Origin: a crenarchaeote SCGC AAA261-N23
GTDB taxonomy: Archaea > Thermoproteota > Thermoprotei > Gearchaeales > Gearchaeaceae
Assembly: GCA_000375685.1 (NCBI GenBank)
Contig: AQVQ01000002.1
Location: forward strand, 1-43,601
DNA length: 43,601 bases
Direction: 5' to 3'
In this document: positions 2,783-20,383 of the stretch, piece by piece
Layout of the letters: each line of letters opens with the position of its first letter
How positions within the stretch are numbered: position 1 is the stretch's first letter
The notes under the pieces: generated by a model
Told to the model about the DNA's origin: nothing
The model's input: only the letters and a program-made list of their open reading frames with translations
Database searches by the model: none
Position numbers and translations under genes: made by a program

Positions 2783-3112
2783 ATGAATTTGGACTACTTT
2801 GATTTAGTCAATATTTATAAGCAGAGTTTGAGAAGGAAAAGTTGGATCCTCCTCGATTCAATTGAGAAATCCTTCTTTAAGGCTTGCTTAATTTTTTTAA
2901 GGAAGTTTAAAATCAAGAGCTTAGCTGTGATTGAAAATTTACAAAAAATAATCAATAAGATTAGATCCTTTAAATTTATGGTTATTAACAGAGGAAAAGA
3001 GATGGCGATACAGATTCAGAATTCAAAAATTGCAGCAATATTTCCTGAAGTCAAATCGCTATTAAATGACAGTGACTATATATTTTGGTTAGGATTGAGA
3101 GCAATAAGATAA
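2783..3112 (+). CDS. Small helical protein, paralog A (family unknown)
   Basis: 109 aa. It aligns end to end with the ORF at 14989..15324, sharing LRRK.W, SFF.ACL and C-terminal YIFWLGLR. It is the first gene ahead of the envelope operon. Confidence 0.6.
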   Translation: MNLDYFDLVNIYKQSLRRKSWILLDSIEKSFFKACLIFLRKFKIKSLAVIENLQKIINKIRSFKFMVINRGKEMAIQIQNSKIAAIFPEVKSLLNDSDYIFWLGLRAIR

Positions 3113-3139
3113 AAATCTTTAACAATTTCAGATTGCAAT

Positions 3140-4153
3140 ATGACTAGCTTGAGGAATATTAAAAGAAACTTATTTAAGATACTGATTGTTTCTTTTATAG
3201 TTATTCTTATCTCAGCAAATAGTTTTGCGCATTTAAATGCACAAGCTACATATAACGAAGCACAAAATAAGATCATAGAAGCATACAAGTCTATATTATA
3301 TGCCGAGGAAAATGGAGGCAATATTACGAACTTAGCAAACATGCTCAATGAGGCAGTGCAACTTTTAGATATGGGAAATTACTATTCGAAAATAAACTCA
3401 ACTTTGGCCTCAAAATATTATAATGAGGCGTATTTAATTGCAGAAAATGTATCAAACCAAGCTCCTAATGTTGCAAAGGAAGGAATGATAAATCAAAGAA
3501 ATGCGATGATATTTTTCATATTCCAGATATCTTTGCTTATCGTCATTGGGTATTTACTTTATAGATATTTACCAGCATTGTATTGGGAACTTTGGTATAG
3601 AACGCATAAAAATTGGAAAATATTCAGATTGAAATCGAACAAAAGGAAAGCTGAGAACAAAGGTAGTTCGTATAAAGTTGATGAACAAATTGCTATATTT
3701 GCCTTAATAGTTGTGATAATCATTGGCGGATTCTTGGTTTCGAATTATTTTCTAGCGAATCTAAATAAGAATCCTTATTCATCTCTTGGAATTCTTGGGC
3801 CCAATGGGAAAATAGGAGATTATCCTAAGAATCTTACATTAGGACAAAACTTTACCCTTTATCTTTATGTTGAAAACGAAGAAGGGCATGTAATGTATTA
3901 TCAAGTTTTGGTAAAAATTGGTAATGCTACGAGCATAGTAAATCAAACTAATTATCTAAACGTTCCTCCTATAGCTACATATAGCTTTATTCTATTAAAT
4001 CATCAGAATGAAACAAGGAAAATTACTCTAGCAATCAACGTTACAGGAGAAAATATTAAGCTAATATTCGAACTTTGGGCATACTCAGTTAACCAGAATA
4101 GTTTTAAATACATAAATATTTGGGATCAGCTATTCGTTAATGTAACAGCATAG
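3140..4153 (+). CDS. Secreted/membrane glycoprotein with a DUF1616 C-terminal-type domain
   Basis: Has a signal-like N-terminus (KILIVSFIVILISANSFA), a helical ectodomain and two TM helices. This is followed by SLGILGPNGKIGDYPKNLTLGQNFTLYLYVENEEGHVMYYQVLV, which resembles the extracellular half of archaeal DUF1616. It contains many N-x-S/T sequons. Confidence 0.55.
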   Translation: MTSLRNIKRNLFKILIVSFIVILISANSFAHLNAQATYNEAQNKIIEAYKSILYAEENGGNITNLANMLNEAVQLLDMGNYYSKINSTLASKYYNEAYLIAENVSNQAPNVAKEGMINQRNAMIFFIFQISLLIVIGYLLYRYLPALYWELWYRTHKNWKIFRLKSNKRKAENKGSSYKVDEQIAIFALIVVIIIGGFLVSNYFLANLNKNPYSSLGILGPNGKIGDYPKNLTLGQNFTLYLYVENEEGHVMYYQVLVKIGNATSIVNQTNYLNVPPIATYSFILLNHQNETRKITLAINVTGENIKLIFELWAYSVNQNSFKYINIWDQLFVNVTA

Positions 4154-4154
4154 A

Positions 4155-4757
4155 ATGCAGAAAATACTAGATAAAGAATTAAGATCCATGATTTTAGGAA
4201 TGTTAGCAGAAGAATCTTTGACAGTCGATGAAATTGTAAAGCAAATTAGGTTTAAAACTGGTTTGAAGAAAAATAAAATATTAAAAATCATTAACGATTT
4301 AATAGATGAAGGCTACTTAGCTAAAGTCGATTATAATCCTCCAACAAGATTTTTAAGTTACTTAAAATCAGGTTATTCACTTTGGTTTTGGGGTGTTATT
4401 GCAATTTCTTTAGCAACACTTTTTACAATATACATAATGCCTCAAATTTATCCTCTGATAATTTTTAGATACATTCTTGGCTCAATTTTTATTTTCTTTT
4501 TGCCAGGTTATGCAATAATTGAAAGCATTTTCCCTAATTTAGATGAACTGGATAGCATTGAAAGGTTCGCTCTTTCAATAGCTATTAGTGTTGGAGTTGT
4601 AGCTTTGGAAGGTTTCATTCTCAACTATACACCTTGGGGTATTAGACTTGAACCTGTTTTGGTTGCTTTAATCTTAACTACATTCTCTTTTTCAATAATT
4701 TCAATATTTAGAAAGCTTCCTTATTTGAGGTTGTTGAATCAGGCTAAGGAAGCATGA
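4155..4757 (+). CDS. wHTH-like N-domain fused to a DUF1616 N-terminal-type membrane domain
   Basis: FFLPGYAIIESIFPNLDELDSIERFALSIAISVGVVALEGFILNYTPWGIRLEP matches the conserved LPGYA...IER...LNYTPWGIRL core of the DUF1616 TM half. Residues 1-60 look like a winged helix. Confidence 0.55.
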   Translation: MQKILDKELRSMILGMLAEESLTVDEIVKQIRFKTGLKKNKILKIINDLIDEGYLAKVDYNPPTRFLSYLKSGYSLWFWGVIAISLATLFTIYIMPQIYPLIIFRYILGSIFIFFLPGYAIIESIFPNLDELDSIERFALSIAISVGVVALEGFILNYTPWGIRLEPVLVALILTTFSFSIISIFRKLPYLRLLNQAKEA

Positions 4758-5452
4758 GGGAAAGCTATTCATTATTTGGAAAAGTATTAATTATATTTGG
4801 GATTATAGTCTCATTTTTCTTTTATGTATTTTATGGAAACATACCTTTAACAGCGATTGGAATTGGTGCAATAATTATAGGCATCGCAGCGATAATGCTT
4901 CCTGAAGAACCTATTCCTCCGGCAACAATAAGATCATTGATTGAAAGCTCAGCTTTAACAATCGAGGCAATACTTGAGGAACTTAAAATTGAATCCAAAG
5001 CTGTTTATTTGCCACCAAATGAAAGTTATGCCTCAGTTGTTTTACCTGTTAAAAGCTTTGAAAATTTGCCTTATGAAGAGCTTGATAGAAGAAACGTTTT
5101 CTTACTAATCAAGAATATACCTGCTATTAAATTCTATCCCCCTGGATGCACAGTGGTTAAAGGTATCTCAAATGATGATCTATCATTGAGTGAAGCTTTG
5201 GAAAAAGTTCTTATAGATATAACAGAAATTTGCTCAAAAGTAAGGGTTGTTGAAACAGGAGAGAACGTAGTTATTGAATTAAGCGATCCATATATGAAAG
5301 AAAAGCTTCCTTATTTTTCTAAGAACTTGGGTTCTTTGCCTTCAAGTTTAGCTGCATTAACGGTTGTAACAATAAAAAAGATTCCTTTGGAAATAGTTAA
5401 AGAAGAATTTCAAAAAAACAAAATTTACGTTTATTTAAGATATTTAGAATGA
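4754..5452 (+). CDS. Membrane-anchored protein, unknown family
   Basis: 232 aa with two N-terminal TM helices and a ~170-aa soluble domain. ATGA overlaps on both sides. Confidence 0.5.
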   Translation: MRESYSLFGKVLIIFGIIVSFFFYVFYGNIPLTAIGIGAIIIGIAAIMLPEEPIPPATIRSLIESSALTIEAILEELKIESKAVYLPPNESYASVVLPVKSFENLPYEELDRRNVFLLIKNIPAIKFYPPGCTVVKGISNDDLSLSEALEKVLIDITEICSKVRVVETGENVVIELSDPYMKEKLPYFSKNLGSLPSSLAALTVVTIKKIPLEIVKEEFQKNKIYVYLRYLE

Positions 5453-5694
5453 ATAAGCATACAAAATATTTACTCACACTATCATTAATCATAGTAATTT
5501 TGGATGTATTATTCGTTTTCTTCAATGTAGACAAAATTGAAGCTTATCTGGTTGCCTATGTTACTGTATATTTTTTCGTTTCTGAACTCTATTCTCCTCG
5601 AAGAAAATACTTCGACTATTTAGGATTATCTTTATTCATCATTTTCGTTTACATTGTTGTTGTATACGTATTCAGAGTGCTGTTTTTATCATGA
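5449..5694 (+). CDS. Small three-TM membrane protein, hypothetical
   Basis: 81 aa and hydrophobic. ATGA overlaps with both neighbours argue for translation. Confidence 0.45.
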   Translation: MNKHTKYLLTLSLIIVILDVLFVFFNVDKIEAYLVAYVTVYFFVSELYSPRRKYFDYLGLSLFIIFVYIVVVYVFRVLFLS

Positions 5695-7583
5695 ATTTTA
5701 AAAAGCAAAATATTTTAGGTATAATTCTAATAGTATTTCTTATTTTGATTTTAATAAACGGCTGGTATAGTTACATACCTTCTTATAGTCAAGTTAATCA
5801 AGTACAAAGTCTTAAAATTGCACCAAATCCTTCTGAGCTGCAATCAATGCCTGCTCCTAATTTGTTGATAGTTAATCTTTATATCAAGCTGATCGGTGCA
5901 ATTAAAAGCGGCAACTCCACTTTAGCATCCAAAATACTTGATCAGTTAAACTACGTTAACTATCCTTCAAATTTAAAGATCATTTTTGAAAGAATGAATA
6001 ATATCTTAAGTCAGATTAATCAACAGTTCATGCAGCTGAATGATTCTTTAAACGAAGCAATATTTTATGTTAAGATTTCTGATCTTCAATCAGCTATAAC
6101 TGTTCTCAATTCTGTCAACTCAACTTTAGCCTCTGTAAATTCAACTCTAAATGAATTGAATCTCGCTTACTCTTTAGTGTCCAATTCTTTAGGTGATGCC
6201 TCAGCTTTATTGGCTAAATATTTGGGAGATTTGAATGATGTTTATTTGAAATACTTGCAAGAGTATCGTGACTTGGTTAATTTTATAAACGAAATAACGA
6301 GCGGGGTTTTAAACGGTAAAATAATACCTACCTCATTATCTTTGAATGCAAATACAACTATTGCATATGTTGGTTCTGAAATTCTAATAAACGGTAGACT
6401 CATTACAGGAGATGGTAAAGGACTTGGAAATCAAAAAGTATCTGTTTTTCTGGAAAACATGCTTCTCAAGAACTTTACAACAAGTCAAGATGGTAGCTTT
6501 TCTGGAATTGTAAGAATACCGTATTTTTACAAAAATTCTACGTTTATTTTTGCTAGCTACTTCCCAACAGGAAATTATTCCCAGAAGTATTCTCCTTCAG
6601 TATCGAATAAAATAGAATTAACATTGATTTTTTATAAGCCTCTTTTGAACGTTTATGCGCCGCATGTAATTTATCCAGCCAAAAGTTTTCAGATCGTTGG
6701 AAACATTAGTCTTAATTCAAATCCACTTTCAAACATTACTTTAGTACTGCAAATCTTTAACAAAATTTATAAAGCCAAGACAAACATTGAAGGAAAATTT
6801 AACTTTACAGTTCTTGTTCCTGAAAATCAACCACAGGGAAACATAACATTTACTCTTCAAACTTTTGCTCAAGGCCTTATTGCCCCAGTTTTCTACACCT
6901 CAAAAATTACTGTAGAGAGAAGCATAATCGAAATTTCCATAAACTATCCTAAACTTACATTTACTGGAACGTATATAGTAATCTCAGGAAAGATAATTTC
7001 TAATGGTACTCCTTTGGCTAATGCATTAATTCAAGTATATGGTTATGGAATCAATTCCTATTCTTTAACAGATGGAAACGGAACCTTCGAAATTTATGTC
7101 AGTCCAAGCTTTCTTATTCCTATTGGAAATTGGGAATTAACGATATATGTTCAGCCAAAAGAGCCATGGATCTCTCCTATAAAACAAGATTTATCAATAT
7201 TCGTTTTCAATCCATTGGAAGTTATCTTGCCATTATCCATCATTTCCATGTCCATATTAATAAGAATTAATAGACAAGAAAGACCTCAAGCTTTATTAAG
7301 GGAAAAGGAGGAAAGAGTTGAAACTTACGAAGAATTTGATGTGAGTGACGTATATTGGCAAGCTACGTTATTTGTTTCACAGGTTACAGGAAAGATACCT
7401 AAGAAAAGTCAAACAATAAGAGAATATTTGAAGGACGTAAAGGATATTCTGAAAGGATACGAATACTATGAGAAGATAAGCTTTGACCATGAAAGGAAAG
7501 TATATGGCTTAGGTCTTAGTGAGGAAGAAATCAAGAATGACATTAAACTATTCAATAAGCTGAGGGAAATTTATGGAAAGTAA
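5691..7583 (+). CDS. Large surface protein: N-terminal TM, helical NST-rich region, three Ig/CarboxypepD_reg-like repeats, TM, cytoplasmic DUF4129-like tail
   Basis: Three ~90-aa repeats have the pattern I.G.h...G.PL.N..h.h......T...G.F. At least 14 N-x-S/T sequons are present. The C-terminal KKSQTIREYLKDV...ERKVYGLGLSEEE fits the DUF4129 pattern T.rEY....Yg.... Confidence 0.6.
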   Translation: MNFKKQNILGIILIVFLILILINGWYSYIPSYSQVNQVQSLKIAPNPSELQSMPAPNLLIVNLYIKLIGAIKSGNSTLASKILDQLNYVNYPSNLKIIFERMNNILSQINQQFMQLNDSLNEAIFYVKISDLQSAITVLNSVNSTLASVNSTLNELNLAYSLVSNSLGDASALLAKYLGDLNDVYLKYLQEYRDLVNFINEITSGVLNGKIIPTSLSLNANTTIAYVGSEILINGRLITGDGKGLGNQKVSVFLENMLLKNFTTSQDGSFSGIVRIPYFYKNSTFIFASYFPTGNYSQKYSPSVSNKIELTLIFYKPLLNVYAPHVIYPAKSFQIVGNISLNSNPLSNITLVLQIFNKIYKAKTNIEGKFNFTVLVPENQPQGNITFTLQTFAQGLIAPVFYTSKITVERSIIEISINYPKLTFTGTYIVISGKIISNGTPLANALIQVYGYGINSYSLTDGNGTFEIYVSPSFLIPIGNWELTIYVQPKEPWISPIKQDLSIFVFNPLEVILPLSIISMSILIRINRQERPQALLREKEERVETYEEFDVSDVYWQATLFVSQVTGKIPKKSQTIREYLKDVKDILKGYEYYEKISFDHERKVYGLGLSEEEIKNDIKLFNKLREIYGK

Positions 7584-8523
7584 AAAAATCTTGTTTATTT
7601 CTACCTTTGCAATTTTGATAACAGTTCTATTTGCGATTTATTACACACCTACTATTCAAGTCTTTGGTGATTCTAACTCCTATTGGAACGGCCTATCAAT
7701 TCTAAAATCCAGGTTGAATGCTACAAGCCTAAATTCATATTCTTCTTTGCCGTTTATTGGTCAGGGCTTTGCTTTAATTATTATAGGTCCTCAAAAGCCA
7801 TTTTATGCCCAAGAAATAGCTATCATAGAACAATTTTTAAATACTGGAGGAACGCTGATAATAGCAGATAACTTTGGTACAGGAAATCAACTGATTTCTA
7901 GCTTAGGATTGGATTCAAGATTTGGCAATCAAACTGTTTATGATCCTGTTTTTAGCTTAGGAAATCCATCAATTATTTATGCTTTTTCTTCAATCAAAAG
8001 CATAAAAAACATCACATTGTATTATTCTACGTATTTGATATTAGGTTCGAATTACAAAGTAATAGCAAACTCAAGCATTTTCAGTTATATCAACATCAAC
8101 AATACTTCAGTAAAATATGGTCCATTTCCTGTAATAGCTTATACAAACTACGGTAAGGGAAAGGTTGTATTAATAGCAACTCCTTATATTTGGGTTAATT
8201 TCTTCATAAATGGAGGTAACTTAGAACTTTTAGATTATATTATTCAAAATGAAACAGCTATTTTAGATGTTTCGCACTGGTATGTTGACACTTTAACGAT
8301 TTTTAAAGAATACGAATTTTTAGCGTATTCAATTCTCTCAACGCCTTTCATAAAGTATTCTATTTTAATAGGTAGCGTTGCATTTATATTCTTGTACAAA
8401 TTTGAAAAAAGTATAATGTCAAAATCAGATGAGATTGAGAAAATCATAAAGGAAAATCCTGATTGGGATGCTGAGCTTATTAGAAGAATAAAAGAGGAAA
8501 GAGAGAATTATGGAAGCAAGTAA
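7573..8523 (+). CDS. DUF4350-like membrane-anchored protein
   Basis: Has N- and C-terminal TM helices. FALIIIGPQKPFYAQEIAIIEQFLNTGGTLIIADNFGTGNQL fits the DUF4350 core. It occupies the canonical position upstream of MoxR-DUF58. Confidence 0.5.
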   Translation: MESKKILFISTFAILITVLFAIYYTPTIQVFGDSNSYWNGLSILKSRLNATSLNSYSSLPFIGQGFALIIIGPQKPFYAQEIAIIEQFLNTGGTLIIADNFGTGNQLISSLGLDSRFGNQTVYDPVFSLGNPSIIYAFSSIKSIKNITLYYSTYLILGSNYKVIANSSIFSYININNTSVKYGPFPVIAYTNYGKGKVVLIATPYIWVNFFINGGNLELLDYIIQNETAILDVSHWYVDTLTIFKEYEFLAYSILSTPFIKYSILIGSVAFIFLYKFEKSIMSKSDEIEKIIKENPDWDAELIRRIKEERENYGSK

Positions 8524-9445
8524 AATTTTTAATTCAATCGTTAATGAAGTTTCCAAGATAATAGTAGGAAATAAAGAAGTAATCGAAATTTCGATAATAA
8601 CCTTGATAGCAAGGGGGCATGTTTTACTTGAGGGTCCTCCTGGAGTAGGAAAAACAACTTTGGCTAAAACCCTAGCAAGAGTTATAGGAGGAAAATTCAA
8701 CAGGATTCAGCTTACCGTTGATACTTTGCCTGCAGATATAATCGGTACGAGTGTTTATAATCAAAAAACTCAGGAGTTTGAAATAAAAAAGGGGCCTATA
8801 TTTGCCAACATTGTTATGGCAGATGAATTCAACAGAGCCCCTCCTAAAACACAGGCAGCTTTTTTGGAAGCAATGCAAGAGCAACAAGTTACGATTGAAG
8901 GCAAAACTTTTCAGCTTCCTAAACCTTTCTTGGTTATAGCTACTCAATTGCCCTATGGTTACGCAGGAACTTATCCTTTGGTTCCCAATCAATTGGATAG
9001 ATTTGCTGTAAGAATTGAGTTAAGCTATCCAAAGAAGGAAGAGGAAATTTCAGTAATATCAAACATCGATAAAATTGAGCTTTTTGATGTTAATCAAGTA
9101 ACTACTCCTGAACAAATGGAGTCTTTATCTGAACAATCAAAACAAGTATATGTTTCAGATAAGGTCAAAGAATACATTGTCGATATTATTCAAAGAATAA
9201 GGGAGGATAAAACTTTCTTCAAATACTCTCCAAGTCCAAGGGCAAGCATTTGGATTCTAAAGCTTTCAAGAGTAAAAGCTTTGCTTGAAGGAAGAAATTT
9301 TGTTATTCCTGATGATGTAAAATTCGTAGCTCCCTATGCTTTAACTCATAGATTGACTTTATTGTCTGAGCTTCAAACCGAGGGAATTAAAGTTCGAGAG
9401 AGTATAAACGCTGTTCTAGATAGCATTCCTGTTCCAAAATTTTGA
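8510..9445 (+). CDS. moxR: MoxR-family AAA+ ATPase
   Basis: Walker A is GPPGVGKT and Walker B is VMADEFNRAPPKTQAAFLEAMQE. The length (311 aa) and overall pattern fit COG0714. Confidence 0.9.
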   Translation: MEASKIFNSIVNEVSKIIVGNKEVIEISIITLIARGHVLLEGPPGVGKTTLAKTLARVIGGKFNRIQLTVDTLPADIIGTSVYNQKTQEFEIKKGPIFANIVMADEFNRAPPKTQAAFLEAMQEQQVTIEGKTFQLPKPFLVIATQLPYGYAGTYPLVPNQLDRFAVRIELSYPKKEEEISVISNIDKIELFDVNQVTTPEQMESLSEQSKQVYVSDKVKEYIVDIIQRIREDKTFFKYSPSPRASIWILKLSRVKALLEGRNFVIPDDVKFVAPYALTHRLTLLSELQTEGIKVRESINAVLDSIPVPKF

Positions 9446-10716
9446 AAAACATTAAATTTACATCAAGAGGAGTAAAAATCTCGATTTCTTCTTTAGTTGC
9501 TTTATTGTTAGGTCTTTTTTTCTTTGATTGGATAATTTTATCTATATCAGTCATCCTTGCTTTATTAATCCTCTATGATTATCTCACTCTGAAAATAGCT
9601 TATAGAGATTTGAAAAAAATTAAAGTAGAGCCAAGTTCAATTCAATTAAATACCTTCAGAAAAAGCACAACTAAATATAAAATTACAATCGAAAGCAAAT
9701 TGGATTTGAATTTAGAAAAGCAATCATGGTTAAGTTTTTCTGAAGAGAAACTGATGAAGGGAAAGAATGAAATAATTTTGTTTTTAGAGCCAATTCATTC
9801 AGGAATATTTAGGCTCGATGGAATTAAATCAAAATTCAAGAGCAAGCTTTCATTATTTGAAGGAACTTATCAAATTCCTTTAAAAATCGAATTGACTGTT
9901 TATCCATTGCTTTATTTAAGATTGATTGAAGCAATAGGACTACTTGCTGAATTGGGATACTATGGCATGGGTGAGCTTCAACAAGTTAGTAAAGGATTAG
10001 GAACTGAATATGCCTACAGTAGAGAATACATTCAAGGAGAAACAATTAGAAGAATAGATTGGAAAGCTTCAGCAAGGCATGCAAAGTTATTTGTAAAGGA
10101 ATTTCATGAAGAGAAGGGAGGAAGTCTTTACATTTTTTTCGATACAAGATTTCCTGGAGAGCTAACAAAGGATGAGCTCAGTAGCTATTTTTTAAGCCTT
10201 TTAATGAACTACGTTTCTATGGATATTCCTCTGCTCGTTTCTATATATGGAAAAGAAAAATTGATAATAAAACGAGAAAGTGGAGTTAATATTCTTGAAA
10301 AAGTCTTAAAATACATAATTGATTATTATAAGATAAAATTAGATGAAATATACAAAATTAAAGATATCATTCCTTCTGAAAAATTAAAAGAGATTATAAA
10401 TCTATTCGGAAATGAAATATTGTTTAAGATATTCAATTTGAATATTCAAAGTTATTTAGAGGAGAAAATTTTGCCTGAGAATGAAAATATGGAAGAGGAA
10501 AATGTTCAAACAGTTTTCATTGTAACAAGTTTGATTAAAGATGTTGAGAAATTTGTAGACATGTTCCAAAATCTAGATGCCTATTTCATATATTATCCAA
10601 AGGTTTATCTTGAAACAGAAAGTTTAGAAGAAAGCTACATTGCAAAGAAATATTTGGAAAGAACAGTTGCAAATCTCAAATCTTTGAACTTTAAAGTTGT
10701 TCCTGTTCCAGATTGA
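9442..10716 (+). CDS. DUF58 protein (vWA-like partner of MoxR)
   Basis: Has two N-terminal TM helices. RRIDWKASARHAKLFVKEFHEEKG is the hallmark DUF58 motif. The TTG start sits in a TTGA overlap with moxR. Confidence 0.8.
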   Translation: MKNIKFTSRGVKISISSLVALLLGLFFFDWIILSISVILALLILYDYLTLKIAYRDLKKIKVEPSSIQLNTFRKSTTKYKITIESKLDLNLEKQSWLSFSEEKLMKGKNEIILFLEPIHSGIFRLDGIKSKFKSKLSLFEGTYQIPLKIELTVYPLLYLRLIEAIGLLAELGYYGMGELQQVSKGLGTEYAYSREYIQGETIRRIDWKASARHAKLFVKEFHEEKGGSLYIFFDTRFPGELTKDELSSYFLSLLMNYVSMDIPLLVSIYGKEKLIIKRESGVNILEKVLKYIIDYYKIKLDEIYKIKDIIPSEKLKEIINLFGNEILFKIFNLNIQSYLEEKILPENENMEEENVQTVFIVTSLIKDVEKFVDMFQNLDAYFIYYPKVYLETESLEESYIAKKYLERTVANLKSLNFKVVPVPD

Positions 10717-11588
10717 GAACTAAGTTAATTTTTATTTCTTTTTTAAGAACAAGAAATTTAATAGTAGGTTGCATTATAACCGCACTGGTAGGCTCTGTTT
10801 TCTTAGGTATTTATACAATAACTGTTCAGGCAAGCGATATAATACATGATCTTAATTCCAAGATAGGCAATTCAAATTCAAAAAGCATACAATACTCGCT
10901 TTATTACTACAATTCAAGCATTTGTATAATTAAACTTAATGAAAGTGAATTAAAATACTTTGCAAATGTTCCTTTAAACTCATCAGAGCTATTAGCTTCT
11001 TCTAGTTTAATTTCTAAACTTAATTTAAAAGATAGAATTATGATTTCGAATAGATCATACAGCTTGGTTGAATTGAATAATCTTTCTTCGATACTTGGAG
11101 ATTGTTTAATTTCGAATAGCATAGTTAATTCTACTAAGCTAATTGGTAATGGGACTTTAAATCTAGGATATCCTAGCCCTAATGAATTTCTTAGCCTAAT
11201 TTCAAACTCGTTGAATGAAATATCTTTAAACTGGATATATTTAGGCTATTTTTCTATTGCGGTTTTTTCTGCGATATTCTCTTATCTAACAATTAGAGAA
11301 AGAAAGGAAGATTTAAGGGCTCTCTATGAGCAAGGAACTGATAAAAATTCAATATATACAGCTTACATATATTCATGCTTGGTTTTTTCAATCTTAACGA
11401 TTTTGCTTTCGCAAACATTCAATTTAGTTATTCAGAACATATCAATAGGAATAATCAACGATTTACTTGGATATGTTCCTTTTTATTCAAGATTTGATTT
11501 GTCCATTTTTCAAAGCCTTTATTACGGAATCATATCTTTTCTTTCTCAACTTGCATTTTCTTTAAAGCTTGCATCTTTATTTTCCTAA
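10713..11588 (+). CDS. FtsX-like ABC permease (MacB/LolC type), short ectodomain
   Basis: N-terminal TM, a sequon-rich external domain, then LTIRERKEDLRALYEQGTDKNSI plus 3 TM helices. That motif is the FtsX-domain signature R..E...L.A.G. Confidence 0.6.
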   Translation: MRTKLIFISFLRTRNLIVGCIITALVGSVFLGIYTITVQASDIIHDLNSKIGNSNSKSIQYSLYYYNSSICIIKLNESELKYFANVPLNSSELLASSSLISKLNLKDRIMISNRSYSLVELNNLSSILGDCLISNSIVNSTKLIGNGTLNLGYPSPNEFLSLISNSLNEISLNWIYLGYFSIAVFSAIFSYLTIRERKEDLRALYEQGTDKNSIYTAYIYSCLVFSILTILLSQTFNLVIQNISIGIINDLLGYVPFYSRFDLSIFQSLYYGIISFLSQLAFSLKLASLFS

Positions 11589-12642
11589 GATAATAAAGAT
11601 AATTTATTCAAGGAAATCTACAATATTAGTCGCAATAATAATGTTCGCCTTATTAGCTTTGAGTTCATTCCCCTACATAGCAACACTATCCGTCGTAAAC
11701 GATGTAAATTTTGCAAGTTTGCCAAACAGTAAAGTAATAGTTCCTTCAAATTCTATAGTTCCATTGACAGGCTACATGAAGGTACCAGCCAATATGTCCT
11801 GTTTTTATAGTGCCGAGATAGCAATTGAGGCTAAAATAAACGGAATTTATTCTATAATAAGAGGCATAAACATTAATAACTCAAGCTATTTTTATAAAAT
11901 AAATATTTTGGAGGGAAATTGGTTTTCAAATGTATATGAAATAGTTATAGGTTATGATTTGGCTAAAAAATTAAATCTAAAGCCTAATGACAAGATTTCT
12001 GTTGAGGATGTTCTAACAGGAAATGTTCAGCCATTCTTAGTTTCTGGAATATTTTATTCAAATTACTCGATTTTCAATGAAGAAGGATTTGTAAGCATTG
12101 AAGCAGCTAGGAATTTATCAAATATTCCTGAAGGGTATTTTAGCTATGTAAGAGTTCCAGAGAATTGTAGCTCAGTAAAAAATTTAAACTCAATTTCTGT
12201 TGGTCTTTCTCAGGTATTTTCCAGAATTTTATCTGGATTTCAGTCAGCTTCTTCAAACTATTCAGTTTATCTTGGAAGTCAAACATTGACAAACGAAATT
12301 TCCGTAATTTCTTTAATCATTATCATATCAATACTAAGCTCAGTATGGTTCATTACTAGAATGTATATTTATTCATTTGAAAAGGATTTGAAGATTCTTT
12401 ATGAACAAGGAGTTTCGGAAAAGAGCATAAAAATTGCGATAATTTTACTTGTTTTGCTCTTATTCATTCCTTTGGCATTTTTATCTTCTTATCTTTCTTA
12501 CACTATTATATTACGATTTGCATTTACCGAAGCATTGCATTATAAAGCGTTGTTGCCAAACTTCATCAATGTTTCATTGTTGCCCACTGAAGCTATAATA
12601 ATTTCATTAATTTCTAGTTTATTTTATAAATTATCTAAATAA
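11569..12642 (+). CDS. FtsX-like ABC permease with a MacB-type extracytoplasmic domain
   Basis: ILEGNWFSNVYEIVIGYDLAKKLNLKPNDKISV is MacB_PCD-like. The C-terminal FEKDLKILYEQGVSEKSI plus 3 TM helices is FtsX-like. Uses a TTG start. Confidence 0.65.
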   Translation: MHLYFPKIIKIIYSRKSTILVAIIMFALLALSSFPYIATLSVVNDVNFASLPNSKVIVPSNSIVPLTGYMKVPANMSCFYSAEIAIEAKINGIYSIIRGININNSSYFYKINILEGNWFSNVYEIVIGYDLAKKLNLKPNDKISVEDVLTGNVQPFLVSGIFYSNYSIFNEEGFVSIEAARNLSNIPEGYFSYVRVPENCSSVKNLNSISVGLSQVFSRILSGFQSASSNYSVYLGSQTLTNEISVISLIIIISILSSVWFITRMYIYSFEKDLKILYEQGVSEKSIKIAIILLVLLLFIPLAFLSSYLSYTIILRFAFTEALHYKALLPNFINVSLLPTEAIIISLISSLFYKLSK

Positions 12643-12681
12643 TGATTCTTAATATTATTCTTAAAATTTTTAAAATTAATT

Positions 12682-13344
12682 ATGAATGATATATTAATAG
12701 AGGCGAAAAATTTAAGTAAAATTAAAAACGAAAAAACAATACTTAAAGATATAAACTTAACAATCAAAGAAGGAGAGCTTGTATTGATTTTCGGAAAATC
12801 AGGTGCAGGAAAAACAACCCTTCTAAGAATACTAGCACTTATTGATAAAGAATATGAAGGCCTTTTTAAATTAAATTTTCATTCCTATAAACAAGATGAA
12901 ATCAGGCTTAAAGAAATAGGTTATATACCACAATTTCTCGATATGATTAGCTCACTTACAATCGAAGAAAATATCATTCTTCCTTTAGAACTCATTGGAG
13001 AAAATAGAAGCGTTATGAAGAAAAAACTCGATGAACTTACAAGTACACTTCAAATAAAGCATATATTGGACAAATATCCAAACGAAGTTTCAGGTGGTGA
13101 GTTGCAAAGGGCCTGCATTGCAAGGGCATTAATTAAAGACCCTAGAATTATAATTGCAGATGAACCAACTTCCCATCTAGATGATGAGATGGAGAAGAAA
13201 GTTATTAGCATTCTTGAAAAATTTTCAAAGAAAAAAGTAACTATAATTTTGTCTTCTACCCATGAATATTATCCAATAAATCCAACTTCTATTTACAAAA
13301 TGGAATCTGGAATGATTAAATTTCATAAGAAAATTGAACTCTAG
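12682..13344 (+). CDS. ABC transporter ATP-binding protein (LolD/MacB-type, COG1136-like)
   Basis: Walker A is GKSGAGKTT, the signature motif is VSGGELQR, Walker B is IIIADEPTSHLD, and the H-loop is SSTHE. Confidence 0.9.
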   Translation: MNDILIEAKNLSKIKNEKTILKDINLTIKEGELVLIFGKSGAGKTTLLRILALIDKEYEGLFKLNFHSYKQDEIRLKEIGYIPQFLDMISSLTIEENIILPLELIGENRSVMKKKLDELTSTLQIKHILDKYPNEVSGGELQRACIARALIKDPRIIIADEPTSHLDDEMEKKVISILEKFSKKKVTIILSSTHEYYPINPTSIYKMESGMIKFHKKIEL

Positions 13345-14917
13345 AAAATTAGTTTATATAATTACTTTAGCTTTAATATTGTTCAACCTATTCTACAGAA
13401 TCTCACCAGCTTTAACAAATGCTCCAGTTTTTAGCTTAGATGCATGGTCTCTTTTAACAGATGTTAAATACATGCTAGAAAACGGGAAAGGCTCATTAGT
13501 TTCATGCAATTCTCTTCCTAGCTGTTATTTTGGCTATTGGCCAAGTCCAATTGTTATAACTACAATTACTTCCCAAATAACCAATTTAAACATTTATTGG
13601 GCACCAGTTGTTGTAACATTCTTCATGAATACTCTTTTCATTTTTGCTTTACTTCTGATAATCTATAGGATAATATTGAATAAGCTCAGGGCTTTCTTCT
13701 TTGGGTCATTGATAATTTCAAGCTTATGGTTTACGAACATATTCTATTCAGGATTTAAAGCTGAAATGATCGCAATGCCTTTATTGATGGTTTTAATATT
13801 ACTATTAATAAGATTTGAAGAGGGAAATTCAAGAGAAACAAAATTGATTCCATTAATATTATACATTTTCTTAATTATCGTTTTTACTCACCATTTCACA
13901 ACTTACATTGCAATGGCAACAATAGGTGGATATTTTGTTTATAAACACGTTAAGAACAAACTTGCTTCATTTGACAAAAGACTTTTCTCAATCTTTTCAT
14001 TTTCTTTCTTGATCTTAGTAATTTATTATTCATTTCAAGGATTTTCCACTTTGGAAAGCTTTGCTTCAGAAGGATTTTTTCCAACTCTGATTTCATATTA
14101 TCTTATATTGTTAATGATAACAGGCTACACTTTGCTTAAAGGCTTCAAGAAGTTCTATCTTTATGTTACAATTTTAGGAATCGCTTTAGCCTTTGTTCTA
14201 AGCTTAGGAATGTCATACTTTTTGCCTGGAATGCCAAGCTTTTCAATATACGATGCTTCTTTAGCTCCTCCATTGATATTGGTTTTAATCTATGGCATAT
14301 TTGGAGCATATTTTATGAACAAGGATTATGATTCTAGATTGCCAATAATCACTTCATGGTCCATTGCACCTTTTTCATTAGTCATTTTTTCATTCTTCGA
14401 TGGTTCAGGTCTCACTTTAAATAGAGGAATAATTGCTGCAAGTATTCCTATGACAGTTTTATCTGCATATTTTATTCAAAGGATTTTCAATGGCCAAAAA
14501 AATTTTAGCTTAATCAAGTTCGTTAATGCCATAATTATTGCTGTTGTTCTTATTAACGGGATTTTCATTCAGTTTCAGCCTTACTTTCAACAGAGAAACG
14601 TATACACAGGAATTTCATGGTATTACAGCACGGATCAAATTGATCAGATAAAAACAATAGTGCACTTTATTCCTCAAAATTCCTATGTTCAATCAGACAG
14701 CATGTTTTCCCAGCTTGCAAGTTTCTTTAATTCTACATTCACAATTTCAAATTCAAGCTTACTACTTATAAATAAATTGGATTTCAATAATTCGAAATAT
14801 TATTCATTCGGAATTGGTCTTGGATATTCATGGACCAAAGAATTTATCAATTTAAAAATTAAAAATAGCGATGTACTATTCAATTCAGAAGATAACATAC
14901 TTATCATGAAAAAATGA
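13334..14917 (+). CDS. Polytopic membrane protein, GT-C-like (possible lipid-linked glycosyltransferase or polymerase)
   Basis: 527 aa with at least 12 predicted TM helices. The first external loop carries an acidic motif (FSLDAWSLLTDVKYMLENG) like PMT_2/ArnT-type GT-C enzymes. It overlaps the ABC ATPase gene by 11 nt. The function call is weak. Confidence 0.4.
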   Translation: MNSRKLVYIITLALILFNLFYRISPALTNAPVFSLDAWSLLTDVKYMLENGKGSLVSCNSLPSCYFGYWPSPIVITTITSQITNLNIYWAPVVVTFFMNTLFIFALLLIIYRIILNKLRAFFFGSLIISSLWFTNIFYSGFKAEMIAMPLLMVLILLLIRFEEGNSRETKLIPLILYIFLIIVFTHHFTTYIAMATIGGYFVYKHVKNKLASFDKRLFSIFSFSFLILVIYYSFQGFSTLESFASEGFFPTLISYYLILLMITGYTLLKGFKKFYLYVTILGIALAFVLSLGMSYFLPGMPSFSIYDASLAPPLILVLIYGIFGAYFMNKDYDSRLPIITSWSIAPFSLVIFSFFDGSGLTLNRGIIAASIPMTVLSAYFIQRIFNGQKNFSLIKFVNAIIIAVVLINGIFIQFQPYFQQRNVYTGISWYYSTDQIDQIKTIVHFIPQNSYVQSDSMFSQLASFFNSTFTISNSSLLLINKLDFNNSKYYSFGIGLGYSWTKEFINLKIKNSDVLFNSEDNILIMKK

Positions 14918-14957
14918 TTACATATTAAAAAATTTTTCATTTTAATGAAATGAAAGG

Positions 14958-14970
14958 TTTTTAAGGTTTG
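14958..14970 (+). promoter_or_regulatory. TATA-type promoter element TTTTTAAGGTTTG (second copy)
   Basis: Identical 13-mer to 2751-2763, lying 31 nt upstream of the ATG at 14989. Confidence 0.55.
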
Positions 14971-14988
14971 AATGAATTATAATTAAAA

Positions 14989-15324
14989 ATGTCAAAATAT
15001 TCATACTCATTCTTTGACTTGTATTACATTAAGTGCCAATTGTTAAGAAGGAAAATATGGTTTAAAATTGACAGGCTTGATAGATCATTTTTCATAGCCT
15101 GTCTTAAGTTTTCAAAGATTAGACCAATAACTAGCAAGGAGGTCATTGAAACATTAAACAACGTAATGAGAAAGATACTATCAATAAAGGAAAAAATAAT
15201 AAGCCTTGGAAAATCATTGATGCAAAAGATCCTTAGCTCCAAAATAGTCGATATGTTCCCTTCATTGTTTAAACTTGCTAACGATAAAAACTACATATTT
15301 TGGCTAGGATTGAGAGGAATATAA
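14989..15324 (+). CDS. Small helical protein, paralog B (family unknown)
   Basis: 111 aa and a paralog of 2783..3112 (LLRRKIW, SFFIACL, YIFWLGLRG). It heads the glycosylation operon. Confidence 0.6.
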   Translation: MSKYSYSFFDLYYIKCQLLRRKIWFKIDRLDRSFFIACLKFSKIRPITSKEVIETLNNVMRKILSIKEKIISLGKSLMQKILSSKIVDMFPSLFKLANDKNYIFWLGLRGI

Positions 15325-15339
15325 TTTATCAAGATTGAA

Positions 15340-16224
15340 TTGCCTAGGATAATAGCAGTCATTCCTGCTTTCAATGAAGAGGAAAATATAGCTAAAGTTA
15401 TAATTAAGGCTCAAAAATATGCGAATAAAATCATTGTTGTAGATGATGGTTCAAGCGATATGACTTCTGAGATTGCAGAAAAGCTGGGAGCTATTGTTTA
15501 CAAACACAAGGAAAATCTTGGAAAGGGAGAAGCTTTGAAAACAGGTTTTGAATTAGCTAAGAAAATGGATTTTGATGTTTTAGTTACGTTAGATGCAGAC
15601 GGCCAACATGATCCTGAAGAAATCCCTATTCTTATCGAGCCGATTGTCAAGGGAGAAGCTGATATGGTTATAGGTTCAAGAAAGATAAACAAATCCGAAA
15701 TGCCTTTTCATAGAAGATTAGGTAATAAAATTCTAGATTCAACTACCCAACTTGTTGCGAAGATAAAAATAAATGATACGCAGAGCGGCTTTAGAGCATA
15801 TACAAAGCAAGCTATAGAAAAGCTTGAAATAAAGGATCATGGAATGGGTGTTGAATCGCAGTTAATAATAGAAGCTATTGAAAAAAATCTTAGGATTAAG
15901 GAAGTTCCTGTTAAAGTTAAGTATGGCAAAGGTCATTCAACTTATAATTTCCTTAGGCAGGGTTCTTACGTTTTACTAACAATTTTAAGAACCGTTATCG
16001 AAAAAAGTCCTTTGCTTTATTTAGGCCTTCCCGGATTAGCAATATCAATTATTGGATTGATACTTGCAATTTGGCTTTTGATAATTTACAATGCAGAAAG
16101 ATACTTTAGTATTCCTATAGCAGTATTAGCTTTAGGAGGCATTCTTCTAGGAATTATTCTCGTGGTAACTGCAATAATACTCTATGCAATACGAACATTG
16201 CATACTAGATTGAGAGAAGTTTGA
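15340..16224 (+). CDS. GT2 glycosyltransferase, dolichyl-phosphate-sugar synthase-like with C-terminal TM helices
   Basis: IIAVIPAFNEEENI, VVDDGSSDMT and TLDADGQHDP motifs. Two C-terminal TM helices. TTG start. Confidence 0.8.
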   Translation: MPRIIAVIPAFNEEENIAKVIIKAQKYANKIIVVDDGSSDMTSEIAEKLGAIVYKHKENLGKGEALKTGFELAKKMDFDVLVTLDADGQHDPEEIPILIEPIVKGEADMVIGSRKINKSEMPFHRRLGNKILDSTTQLVAKIKINDTQSGFRAYTKQAIEKLEIKDHGMGVESQLIIEAIEKNLRIKEVPVKVKYGKGHSTYNFLRQGSYVLLTILRTVIEKSPLLYLGLPGLAISIIGLILAIWLLIIYNAERYFSIPIAVLALGGILLGIILVVTAIILYAIRTLHTRLREV

Positions 16225-19415: not shown

Positions 19416-19452
19416 TCATATTAAAGAGTTGTTTTTATAAATTTGTGTTTTA

Positions 19453-20256: not shown

Positions 20257-20383
20257 GAATGGAAAAACAAGAAGATTGCCTGTTGGAAAAAAATATTGCA
20301 AGGCTTGAAGGAAACAATTAATGGTTTTCAACATAAAAGGAAAAAGTTAATCAACTAAAGGTTTCTTTTAAAATAGCTTAAAC

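Follow-up and report, generated by a model that had tools for sequence, protein, structure and literature searches.

A putative archaeal envelope machine and an optional, linked ABC transporter module with a probable membrane glycosyltransferase

Do twelve tightly packed genes of a crenarchaeote (SCGC AAA261-N23) encode one envelope machine, and on what might it act? In the window, the whole 43,601-nucleotide stretch of DNA analysed here, the ORF listing places exactly 12 same-strand ORFs at 3140-14917. Their junctions, from ORF1 to ORF12, are +1, -4, -4, -4, -11, -14, -4, -4, -20, +39 and -11 nt, that is, two gaps (1 and 39 nt), five 4-nt ATGA/TTGA overlaps and four longer ones of 11-20 nt. 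These figures agree with the first-pass annotation, which had counted 12 ORFs with two gaps and overlaps elsewhere, and uphold its view of a single co-directional, tightly overlapping cluster. Choosing the longest TTG-started ORFs could have created such overlaps artificially, but this is disfavoured because gene calls made independently on a related contig (L006; 630-aa protein 53% identical) give the same overlapping layout. The limits 3140-14917 had to be moved outwards, since genes of ~110 aa on either side, called bracket proteins below, belong to the conserved neighbourhood. The features are as follows.

2783..3112, + strand: bracket protein, leader copy, 109 aa; soluble, helical, with a C-terminal YIFWLGLR motif
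3140..4153, + strand: ORF1, 337 aa; parts 1a and 1b fused; 10 sequons
4155..4757, + strand: ORF2, 200 aa; winged-helix-like cytoplasmic N-terminus and four TM helices
4754..5452, + strand: ORF3, 232 aa; N-terminal TM hairpin and ~170-aa alpha/beta domain
5449..5694, + strand: ORF4, 81 aa; small membrane protein, 2-3 TM segments
5691..7583, + strand: ORF5, 630 aa; large ectodomain, TM segment, cytoplasmic DUF4129-type tail
7573..8523, + strand: ORF6, 316 aa; signal peptide, extracellular DUF4350 (GldG-like) domain
8510..9445, + strand: ORF7, 311 aa; cytoplasmic MoxR-type AAA+ ATPase
9442..10716, + strand: ORF8, 424 aa; DUF58-type protein with N-terminal TM hairpin
10713..11588, + strand: ORF9, 291 aa; divergent, shortened FtsX-type permease
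11569..12642, + strand: ORF10, 357 aa; LolC/LolE-like type VII ABC permease
12682..13344, + strand: ORF11, 220 aa; ABC ATPase of the FtsE/LolD/MacB-type group
13334..14917, + strand: ORF12, 527 aa; about 13 TM segments and a ~110-aa C-terminal ectodomain
14989..15324, + strand: bracket protein, trailer copy, 111 aa; paralogue of 2783-3112, 71 nt past ORF12

The two bracket copies are 47% identical (E 2e-28), and the pair flanking the system had previously gone unnoticed. The unit probably starts with the leader gene, which ends 27 nt before ORF1; the leader protein matched no Pfam family. In L001, L003/4, L007-9/13, L010, L018, L031, L034, L056, L075 and L109-113 a leader homologue immediately precedes the first DUF1616 gene, and second copies lie directly past the DUF58 gene or the ABC module in L006, L010, L034, L075, L081, L111/113, L155, L163/164 and L170-172.

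Chance juxtaposition of the DUF1616 genes with the DUF4129/DUF4350/MoxR/DUF58 genes, raised by the first-pass annotation as a way to be wrong, is contradicted by their synteny across many Thermoproteota lineages. At least five of the six core genes 3-8 were present in 20 of the 31 non-redundant species-level loci across Thermoproteota that extend at least 8 kb either side of an ORF2 homologue; related loci share ancestry, so these locus counts are not independent events. The order 1-2-3-4-5-6-7-8 is kept in relatives whose counterpart of the 630-aa protein is 53-64% identical and in a Nitrososphaerota-type genome with an ORF2 only 41% identical, and the Desulfurococcales carry the same genes in the permuted order 7-3-4-5-6-8-1-1-2. 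For genes 1-8 the architecture is not new, contrary to the earlier statement that no description of the combined architecture was known. A neighbourhood of DUF1616, DUF4350, MoxR, vWA/DUF58, Ig-like and small membrane proteins was predicted from genomes by Makarova, Galperin and Koonin in 2015 (PMC5898192; section 3.2, Table 2, Fig. 2), who modelled this arCOG01314-type neighbourhood as a novel system with a putative role in secretion or membrane remodelling; ours agrees with their Table 2. The literature searched yielded no functional or expression data on any homologue.

The DUF1616 assignment was confirmed by Pfam for both proteins and proved unusual in form. ORF1 matches the C-terminal half of the family (55 bits, model positions 135-288) and ORF2 the N-terminal half (87 bits, positions 3-117); thus, DUF1616 is here spread over two genes with its halves in permuted order. 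ORF1 is itself a fusion of 1a (signal anchor, helical ectodomain, TM segment) and 1b (TM segment and Ig-like ectodomain, the DUF1616 half), which most lineages keep as separate genes: its family HMM splits at 9-158 / 164-324, and each half is its own ~150-160-aa gene in L010, L020, L034 and L081. At the other extreme, 493-aa proteins in L075 and L109-113, directly 5' of the ABC module, fuse 1b, 1a and ORF2. The four TM helices of ORF2 make up its DUF1616 half, and its loop LNYTPWGIRL is invariant (alignment A1). ORF2 has 1825 homologues, and no fold in PDB matched its AF2 model (pLDDT 86.6) at E<1. The two small genes that follow are conserved core components. ORF3, whose alpha/beta domain is probably cytoplasmic, has 66 syntenic homologues across loci; its family gave no Pfam match in 25 members and no PDB match, and its counterpart in L010 has just a weak precomputed DUF7982 match. 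ORF4, likewise unmatched in Pfam, has 56 syntenic homologues, which range from 72 to 116 aa with most at 80-97 aa and are almost always flanked by ORF3 and ORF5.

Behind an initial signal or TM segment, ORF5 has a helical/coiled-coil ectodomain spanning residues ~50-210 and then three to four beta-sandwich domains of the CarboxypepD_reg/Ig-like type. A TM segment at residues ~500-527 leads into the DUF4129-type tail. The first-pass DUF4129 call fails on the window protein (no match at E<0.1; its sole Pfam match is CarboxypepD_reg, 30.7 bits against a cutoff of 32.3) and stands for the family: within alignment A5, 24 of 32 members match DUF4129 (best 8.5e-11) and 19 of 32 CarboxypepD_reg. The C-terminal motif SETLREYL...E..LY is conserved, and PDB profile matches are to Ig-repeat adhesins and coiled coils. 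ORF6 is the arCOG01314 signature protein, ending in a TM segment and a charged cytoplasmic tail; Pfam confirms its DUF4350 domain (35.4 bits, cutoff 30.4; ABC_transp_aux 23.9 bits), a family whose similarity to GldG has been reported (PMC5898192).

The MoxR call for ORF7 is firm: AAA_3 matches with 192.9 bits and AAA_lid_2 with 56.7, and Walker A (GPPGVGKT) and Walker B (MADEF) are both intact. It also matches bpMoxR (50 bits), a Pfam model that derives from MoxR-vWA-beta-propeller ternary systems. For ORF8, Pfam supports DUF58 with 33.2 bits over just 42 residues (193-234); the family consensus reaches 43 bits, and the motif REY.PGD..R.IDWKATAR..L.VKEF is strongly conserved. ORF8 is the presumed vWA-like partner of MoxR, the vWA fold being assigned by inference, as the protein matched no PDB sequence. 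Its body is probably cytoplasmic, since it contains no sequons; Makarova et al. judged the family likely to be secreted (PMC5898192).

Sequons are absent from ORF7 as well as ORF8, and the excess previously proposed for the extracytoplasmic proteins is real. Predicted ectodomains exceeded the shuffled expectation in ORF1 (10 vs 4.2) and ORF5 (14 vs 7.7, all 14 within the ectodomain), and also in ORF6, ORF9 and ORF10. The glycan island said to adjoin the cluster is borne out at least to 30.2 kb, where genes for a GT2 enzyme and several GT1/GT4 enzymes accompany those for two epimerases, a carbamoyltransferase and an amidotransferase of the AsnB type. In L006, as in the window, the cluster is followed by GT2, GT1 and epimerase genes. 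That the machine may act on a glycosylated surface structure, as the first-pass annotation proposed, is a plausible hypothesis.

Genes 9-12 are a separate, tightly linked and optional four-gene module of two LolC/E-like permeases, an ATPase and the 13-TM protein. Pfam confirms the ATPase ORF11 (ABC_tran, 112 bits; best NCBIfam models L_ocin_972_ABC 3e-47, FtsE 4e-44, LolD 4e-43 and DevA 6e-41). The FtsX/MacB call, in contrast, does not hold on the window permeases, neither of which matches Pfam FtsX, and is recovered in their families. ORF10 (TM1, MacB_PCD-like ectodomain, three C-terminal TM segments) reaches 22.8 bits for MacB_PCD, below the cutoff of 27, and 4.6e-7 for NCBIfam lolCE, with the LolC periplasmic domain (E 0.025) as its only PDB match. 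Its family matches FtsX in 12 and MacB_PCD in 7 of 17 members; the consensus scores 53.6 bits (MacB_PCD) and 28.2 bits (FtsX), and the profile finds LolC (3.3e-14) and LolE (1.3e-13) in PDB, as well as LolF, YbbP and MacB. ORF9 (TM1, ~130-aa ectodomain, C-terminal TM segments) has no Pfam match alone; its family consensus aligns with FtsX (E 0.0094, positions 8-117/120) and with permease family A3 (hhalign probability 94.5%, E 8e-8), and in other lineages its position is occupied by a second permease of full length. ORF12 is a probable GT-C-like membrane glycosyltransferase (PMT_2/DUF6541-related). This earlier call is likewise sub-threshold on the window protein, which matched neither Pfam (no GT-C family) nor PDB, and is supported at family level through transitive profile links: the consensus scores 21.7 bits for PMT_2 (below 26.1; positions 8-159/160), and family A2 aligns with DUF6541-positive P0178 (98.5%, E 2e-15) and PMT_2-positive P0180 (97.2%, E 4e-11). 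Fifty family sequences all share P70, H186 and R364, and nearly all share D36 and E144; the AF2 model (pLDDT 45) was unusable. In nearly every anchored locus an ORF12-type gene stands next to the permease genes, usually with the ATPase gene on its other side, making ORF12 an integral member of the module.

Is the module part of the same machine? Among 28 non-redundant ORF12-family clusters with at least 7 kb upstream, permeases occur in 27 and the ATPase in 24; DUF1616 and/or at least three core genes share the locus in 16 (57%), whereas 12 (about 43%) have neither a core nor a DUF1616 gene within up to 10 kb each side. Core and module can therefore work independently, and the twelve genes are not the fixed unit first proposed: only 5 of the 20 full-core loci contain the module, and the closest species-level relatives (L003-5, L007-9, L013) have genes 1-8 and no ABC block, the orthologue of the window's 601-aa protein lying directly 3' of DUF58. 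Compared with them, the window has an extra 11.4-kb segment (10713-22084) that also includes GT and epimerase genes. All this would fit two independent systems in a shared envelope/glycan region, the MacB-type module serving, for example, lipid-linked glycan handling, peptide/toxin efflux or glycosylation of other surface proteins. We regard this as a serious but less probable explanation, because 57% co-location compares with ~1-2% by chance (a rough estimate assuming one core per ~2 Mb genome), and the linkage survives several independent rearrangements, usually with gaps <50 bp. The block recurs beside core genes in distant lineages, which also argues against chance juxtaposition. At least four arrangements occur: it may lie 3' of DUF58 or 5' of gene 1, point away from ORF2 while sharing the orientation of gene 1, or carry its ATPase inverted. 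Furthermore, P0170 apparently fuses a full-length ORF12-family domain, which is certain, to a DUF1616-like TM hairpin, the weaker part. The module is optional yet strongly linked to the core.

Two other readings concern the core. It could be an envelope-stress sensing device, ORF2 being a membrane-tethered transcription regulator whose state is set by MoxR/DUF58, with the small soluble bracket proteins as co-regulators. The three-helix N-terminal domain of ORF2 does weakly resemble winged helices of many families (E about 0.04) and, in Foldseek, partially those of Lrp/AsnC-type and RRE proteins (probability 0.5-0.6). The winged-helix matches are all below threshold, and a cluster of mostly large glycosylated ectodomain proteins better fits a structural or mechanical role, making a regulatory device unlikely. 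We give still less credence to a system for vesicle formation or membrane remodelling, the latter being the alternative reading of Makarova et al. (PMC5898192), or to an anti-virus conflict system built on a MoxR-vWA pair, although the bpMoxR match might point this way. PADLOC gives only generic AAA+ P-loop similarity, and beta-propeller and effector domains are missing from the cluster. Unlike typical defence islands, the cluster shows conservation and synteny across phyla and apparently occurs in single copy.

We therefore favour, with somewhat better than even confidence, an extended arCOG01314-type trans-membrane envelope machine consisting of a core and an accessory ABC module, and its best reading is a predicted machine that assembles or remodels surface glycoproteins. 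Our observations concern which genes are present, their domain families, indications of topology, the conservation of synteny and the reciprocal genomic linkage of the modules; all physical interactions, substrate and direction of action are what we infer. The core would comprise genes 1-8 and one bracket protein per side. On the cytoplasmic side, the MoxR ATPase and a membrane-tethered DUF58/vWA-type adaptor would face cytoplasmic handles on membrane proteins, provided by the tails of ORF5 and ORF6, by the domain of ORF3 and by the winged-helix-like N-terminus of ORF2. The ectodomains, presumably glycosylated, would lie outside: in ORF5 the coiled coil and the array of Ig-like domains, in ORF6 the GldG-like DUF4350 domain, and in ORF1 the Ig-like and helical domains of DUF1616. 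Other MoxR-vWA pairs mature their client complexes, and by analogy MoxR and DUF58 may spend ATP on assembling or remodelling the scaffold in the membrane. The LolCDE-like heterodimeric type VII transporter, joined to the 13-TM GT-C-like protein, attaches to the core at its DUF1616 or DUF58 end, in the genome and probably also physically. Its mechanical work would be done outside the cytoplasm, on a glycoconjugate or glycoprotein that is membrane-anchored or lipid-linked; the GT-C-like subunit could modify this substrate, or transfer it, with lipid-linked sugars that adjacent glycan genes may supply.

The twelve genes are a real cluster of a widespread, putative archaeal envelope machine. Beside the machine predicted in 2015, an optional LolCDE-like ABC transporter with a probable membrane glycosyltransferase recurs as an add-on in many distant archaea.

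All twelve same-strand ORFs that the first-pass annotation had read between positions 3140 and 14917 (ORF1 to ORF12) were recovered in our ORF listing, as was the overlapping arrangement described for them; successive junctions measure +1, -4, -4, -4, -11, -14, -4, -4, -20, +39 and -11 nt. Independent gene calls on a related contig (L006, 53% identical at the 630-aa protein encoded by ORF5) gave an identical overlapping layout, so the overlaps cannot be put down to a preference for the longest TTG-started ORFs. Three minus-strand ORFs (3076-3348, 8425-8700 and 8672-8992) lie inside well-supported plus-strand genes and were treated as spurious. The window has a GC content of about 30%, and over its whole length we found no RNA family of Rfam and no tRNA gene. 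We refer to genes 1-8 as the core and to genes 9-12 as the ABC module; the features in and around them are as follows.

2783-3112, plus strand: first bracket protein, ~110 aa
3140-14917, plus strand: ORF1 to ORF12, itemized in the next lines
ORF1: DUF1616, 55 bits (Pfam), only the C-terminal half of the model
ORF2 (4155-4757): DUF1616, 87 bits (Pfam), only the N-terminal half; a small winged-helix-like domain ahead of it
ORF3 and ORF4: no Pfam match
ORF5 (630 aa): CarboxypepD_reg below threshold only; no DUF4129 on the window protein (Pfam)
ORF6: DUF4350, 35.4 bits against a cutoff of 30.4 (Pfam); hydrophobic segments at the N- and C-terminus
ORF7: MoxR AAA_3, 193 bits (Pfam)
ORF8: DUF58, 33 bits over 42 residues (Pfam)
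ORF9: no Pfam match on its own sequence
ORF10: MacB_PCD, 22.8 bits against a cutoff of 27 (Pfam); no FtsX
ORF11: ABC_tran, 112 bits (Pfam)
ORF12 (527 aa): no Pfam match and no GT-C model at cutoff
14989-15324, plus strand: second bracket protein, ~110 aa, a paralogue of the first (47% identity)
19453-20256, plus strand: fusion of a Polbeta/MNT nucleotidyltransferase and a HepT-like RNase, 267 aa, in the glycan island
22092-23897, plus strand: polytopic membrane protein, 601 aa, no Pfam match

The DUF1616, DUF4350, MoxR and DUF58 assignments made from the sequence alone were thus borne out by Pfam on the window proteins themselves. Since DUF4129 and FtsX, whose failure in HMM searches the first-pass annotation had named as grounds for giving up its reading, were not matched by the window proteins, we tested them at the level of families, using homologues gathered from related loci. 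DUF4129 (PF13559), although not matched by ORF5 itself, was matched by 24 of the 32 members of its family (best E-value 8.5e-11), CarboxypepD_reg by 19/32, and a C-terminal motif, SETLREYL...E..LY, is conserved in the family and present in ORF5. Similarly, the FtsX/MacB permease calls failed on ORF9 and ORF10 individually and held for their family (FtsX, PF02687, in 12 of 17 members; MacB_PCD, PF12704, in 7).

ORF5 carries Ig-like repeats, and ORF3 and ORF4 have TM segments. No Pfam family was found for 25 members of the ORF3 family, and sequence and profile searches of the PDB returned nothing for the ORF3 and ORF8 families; ORF8 is presumed, from its DUF58 match, to be a vWA-type protein with a putative vWA fold. 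The AF2 model of ORF2 was confident (pLDDT 86.6), and when it was compared with the PDB by Foldseek no match reached E<1, the only resemblances being partial ones to winged helices. In ORF2, residues 157-165 form an invariant LNYTPWGIRL motif that holds a strictly conserved N-Y-T sequon, in a loop between predicted TM3 and TM4 that would lie on the outer face if an N-in topology is assumed; the sequon could be an N-glycosylation site or mark a functional loop. Word-indexed homologue searches returned only 4-5 proteins for ORF5 and ORF12, the index being saturated by hydrophobic words.

The core is conserved well beyond the immediate relatives of the window, and more than 1800 ORF2-family sequences were identified. 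Its gene order is kept in L001 and L003-9 (L006 among them), where the 630-aa protein has 53-64% identity to that of the window, and also in a Nitrososphaerota-type genome whose ORF2 homologue is only 41% identical. The latter locus begins with a pair of ~160-aa genes that match ORF1 (and DUF1616 too in the case of the second), followed by DUF1616 (187 aa), proteins of 243 and 80 aa, DUF4129 (620 aa), DUF4350, MoxR and DUF58, and then by unrelated metabolic genes. A scan for the ORF2 family, with each GTDB species represented by a single genome, gave more than 567 loci, which span Bathyarchaeia, Nitrososphaeria, Desulfurococcales/Ignisphaera, Methanomethylicia, Caldivirga, Brockarchaeota and others, the nearest being "Thermoproteota archaeon PSS.bin.9" (77%). 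When iterative HMMs built from the window proteins were mapped onto these loci, at least five of the six genes 3-8 were present in 20 of the 31 loci that are non-redundant at species level and have at least 8 kb on both sides. Desulfurococcales have these genes too, with their order permuted. Two Desulfurococcales loci (L040:4842-7433 and L042:4889-7363) have a single ORF of 824-863 aa matching both the DUF4350 and DUF58 HMMs, with MoxR elsewhere in the locus, which suggests either a fusion or a missed stop or frameshift.

In the PSS.bin.9 lineage, four large genes (681, 711, 747 and 469 aa) lie upstream of the core (L007:1-7310; also L008, L009, L013 and L003); their products have no Pfam match and an ITHHLT-like motif in common. 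The 711-aa and 747-aa proteins (L007/L013) were recruited by the iterated ORF12 HMM, and we rejected both as homologues of ORF12: BLASTP of the former against ORF12 was not significant (E 0.19), and the latter had a far lower HMM score.

ORF11 belongs with ABC ATPases of the FtsE/LolD/DevA/bacteriocin group: its best NCBIfam matches are L_ocin_972_ABC, FtsE, LolD and DevA (E 1e-41 to 1e-47), and its Walker A, signature and Walker B motifs read as intact. The 17-sequence permease family profile found LolC (3.3e-14) and LolE (1.3e-13) as best matches in the PDB, and also LolF, YbbP and MacB; its consensus scored 53.6 bits with MacB_PCD and 28.2 bits with FtsX. By sequence, ORF9 is a divergent, shortened member of this family (hhalign 94.5%, E 8e-8). 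Membership of LolCDE proper was rejected, with lolCE at 29 bits (cutoff 362) and LolD at 147 bits (cutoff 308) in NCBIfam, and no LolA-like gene seen; the module is at most LolCDE-like in its working.

The first-pass annotation treated the twelve genes as one unit, and as a fixed unit this does not hold: genes 9-12 are missing from the closest relatives (L003-5, L007-9 and L013). There, the gene right after DUF58 encodes a 605-aa protein, 79% identical to the 601-aa protein of the window. It follows from this adjacency that the window and L006 have an extra segment of 11.4 kb (10713-22084) between DUF58 and the 601-aa membrane protein, where the PSS.bin.9 lineage has only L007:16568-16634. The segment contains the ABC module, a 111-aa protein, GT2, GT1, two epimerases, the MNT/HepT gene and a carbamoyltransferase.

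Elsewhere, the ABC module adjoins the core in distant lineages, in varying orientations (L034, L038, L042, L045, L046, L050, L066, L070, L078, L081 and L082), and stands beside DUF1616 genes alone in L014 and L075. As a reciprocal test we scanned metagenomes with the ORF12 family as anchor (narrow alignment A7), with de-redundancy at 80% identity and at least 7 kb upstream. Permeases were present in 27 of the 28 resulting clusters and the ATPase in 24, usually in the order permease, permease, 13-TM protein, ATPase. DUF1616 and/or at least three core genes occurred in the same locus in 16/28 (57%), against a chance co-location that we ourselves estimate at ~1-2%, assuming a genome of ~2 Mb with about one core locus, and the linkage is kept through at least four different arrangements. 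On these counts genes 9-12 are a discrete four-gene module, with the 13-TM protein as an integral member, and a facultative yet non-random partner of the core. The blocks are therefore not a chance juxtaposition, as regards both the core genes themselves (20/31 loci) and the module with the core or DUF1616 (16/28).

The 13-TM protein, ORF12, belongs to a small family (59 representative clusters among 1.84 billion proteins), from which no solved structure could be reached by sequence or profile searches of the PDB; an AF2 model from a 4-sequence alignment was unusable (pLDDT 45). No GT-C model was matched above threshold. The family consensus aligned with nearly the whole of PMT_2 at 21.7 bits, below the cutoff of 26.1. 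Two distant members provide transitive profile links: P0178 matches DUF6541 above cutoff (40.5 bits) and the ORF12 family by hhalign (98.5%, E 2e-15), and P0180 matches PMT_2 above cutoff (26.9 bits) and the ORF12 family (97.2%, E 4e-11). In 50 sequences, D36 (in PFSxDAW, just after TM1) and E144 are nearly invariant and P70, H186 and R364 invariant. Sequons at 466, 473 and 485 imply that the C-terminal domain lies outside. In topology ORF12, with about 13 helices, resembles GT-C proteins, which are polytopic (8-13 TM), carry a conserved acidic residue in their first loop outside the membrane and end in an extracytoplasmic domain. The original label "GT-C-like" is, on topology and profile links, reasonable but unproven.

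Gene fusions join several of these parts. ORF1 is itself a fusion of two halves, 1a and 1b, which are separate genes in most lineages; a 493-aa protein directly before the ABC module (L075, L109-113) fuses 1b, 1a and ORF2. In the 641-aa protein P0170, a complete ORF12-family domain (residues 127-641; hhalign 100%, E 1.6e-43) is preceded, with weaker support, by a DUF1616-N-like TM hairpin (residues 28-93; hhalign 72%, E 3e-5; Pfam DUF1616 E 4.9e-5), which makes the protein an apparent natural fusion of the two. The bracket proteins match no Pfam family and have a C-terminal YIFWLGLR-type motif in common. In many distant lineages their homologues are the immediate upstream neighbours of gene 1a and, at the other end, the immediate downstream neighbours of DUF58 or of the ABC module. 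The start of the unit is probably at 2783 or upstream of it. Within the glycan island, the 601-aa protein shows faint similarity to the ORF12 family (E 1e-6, iterated HMM) and may be another GT-C-like or polymerase-like protein. The ORF at 19453-20256 is a toxin-antitoxin-type pair in one reading frame, and L001, L003, L008 and L010 have comparable MNT/HepT genes close to the cluster.

Hydropathy and the distribution of sequons would place outside the cell the helical and Ig-like domains of ORF1, the coiled coil and Ig-like array of ORF5, the DUF4350 domain of ORF6, the permease ectodomains and the ORF12 C-terminal domain. By the same measures MoxR, the DUF58 body (zero sequons), the DUF4129 and ORF6 tails, the ORF3 domain and the winged-helix domain of ORF2 would be inside. 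Other MoxR-vWA pairs mature or remodel client complexes, and type VII ABC systems act mechanically at the outer face of the membrane. By analogy, MoxR and DUF58 probably act on cytoplasmic handles of a membrane scaffold, whereby an extracellular array would be assembled or switched; on the outer side, the LolCDE-like module would contribute the mechanical work; and the GT-C-like subunit would use lipid-linked sugars, perhaps from the adjacent GT and epimerase genes.

In its full form, which we consider rather unlikely, this proposal makes the cluster a two-motor trans-envelope machine of Thermoproteota. On the inner side, scaffold proteins of Ig-like and GldG-like type would have their cytoplasmic tails remodelled by the MoxR AAA+/vWA pair. 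On the outer side, a mechanotransmission ABC transporter resembling LolCDE, coupled physically both to a GT-C glycosyltransferase and to the DUF1616 proteins, would extract a membrane-anchored component of the surface, glycosylate it and hand it over; a lipid-anchored glycoprotein, a glycolipid or an anchor of the S-layer could fit. Such a machine would parallel, in archaea, the bacterial envelope-assembly systems of Lol/gliding-GldG type; no archaeal system of this sort has been described. Among the rivals, the ABC block and the core may be independent modules; the core without genes 9-12 in the closest relatives speaks for this, and the sharing of a locus by the module and core or DUF1616 genes, far more often than our estimate of chance, speaks against it. 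Less probably, the core may be a regulatory device. A role in membrane remodelling or defence is a further alternative; its defence form was rejected, as PADLOC gave only generic AAA+ matches.

The arCOG01314/DUF1616/MoxR system is among the most widely conserved archaeal membrane-protein neighbourhoods. Its prediction is eleven years old, and in the literature searched we found neither an experimentally determined function for it nor any functional study of DUF4129 with MoxR, of DUF6541 or of arCOG01314. The extended version narrows the hypothesis space by tying the core to genes for glycan synthesis, to a probable transferase of lipid-linked sugars and to an ABC transporter of the mechanotransmission type, and the fusions and the bracket pair suggest which parts touch. 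An old question, how archaeal cell surfaces are built and maintained beyond Sec, AglB and archaeosortase, thereby becomes more directly testable.

The proposal of an uncharacterized machine, with a combined architecture of which no description was known, stands only in part, because the core had already been predicted by computation. Makarova, Galperin and Koonin (2015, Biochimie; PMC5898192) described an arCOG01314/arCOG02884-associated putative novel secretion or membrane-remodelling system, for which section 3.2, Table 2 and Fig. 2 list DUF4350/GldG-like, MoxR, vWA, pfam07760 and Ig-like proteins and small membrane proteins of 2-5 TM segments; the DUF1616-MoxR link is real and already on record there. 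As representatives of the family that paper gives TON_1832 of Thermococcus onnurineus and MMP0360 of Methanococcus maripaludis. As in that list, the core combines in one conserved neighbourhood a membrane-anchored DUF4350/GldG-like protein (ORF6), adjacent MoxR and DUF58 (presumed vWA-type) proteins (ORF7/ORF8), Ig-ectodomain pfam07760 (DUF1616) proteins (ORF1/ORF2), a further Ig-like "S-layer-like" protein (ORF5) and small TM proteins (ORF3/ORF4). In the window lineage DUF1616 is split and permuted, with the 1a-1b fusion followed by the N-half as a separate gene. The ABC transporter, the 13-TM GT-C-like protein and the ~110-aa bracket protein are absent from the published component table (PMC5898192). 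In that table and the other literature searched we found no prior description of the recurrent coupling of the core to a LolCDE-like ABC and GT-C-like module, of the position of the 13-TM protein within it, of the bracket proteins or of the fusions, and all four appear to be new.

In bacteria, DUF4350, MoxR and DUF58 are adjacent in Mycobacterium Rv3691-Rv3693 and M. chelonae (BB28_RS01890, RS01885 and RS01880), within clusters such as Rv3689-Rv3695 and its M. chelonae orthologues that include neighbouring membrane proteins (PMC8191103). These DUF4129-DUF4350-MoxR-DUF58 clusters have SpoIIM-like and RDD membrane proteins in place of DUF1616, ORF3 and ORF4 (PMC8191103) and, like the archaeal core, have no assigned function. 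The ABC module shares with LolCDE and other type VII (MacB/FtsEX-type) systems two non-identical permeases (FtsX-type at family level), a separate LolD/FtsE-like ATPase and the topology of a mechanotransmission transporter. It differs in its remote similarity, with window proteins below Pfam cutoffs and a shortened ORF9 ectodomain, in having no LolA/LolB-like partner, and in its obligatory 13-TM partner; we know of no type VII system with such a partner inside the module. Bat-type MoxR/DUF58 operons are a further bacterial parallel to the core. Finally, although ORF12 sits within an ABC operon, belongs to a small family and reaches no Pfam GT-C cutoff, it has in common with PMT_2/ArnT-like GT-C enzymes and DUF6541 proteins about 13 TM helices, a C-terminal domain placed outside, a near-invariant Asp after TM1, and the profile links that connect the families.
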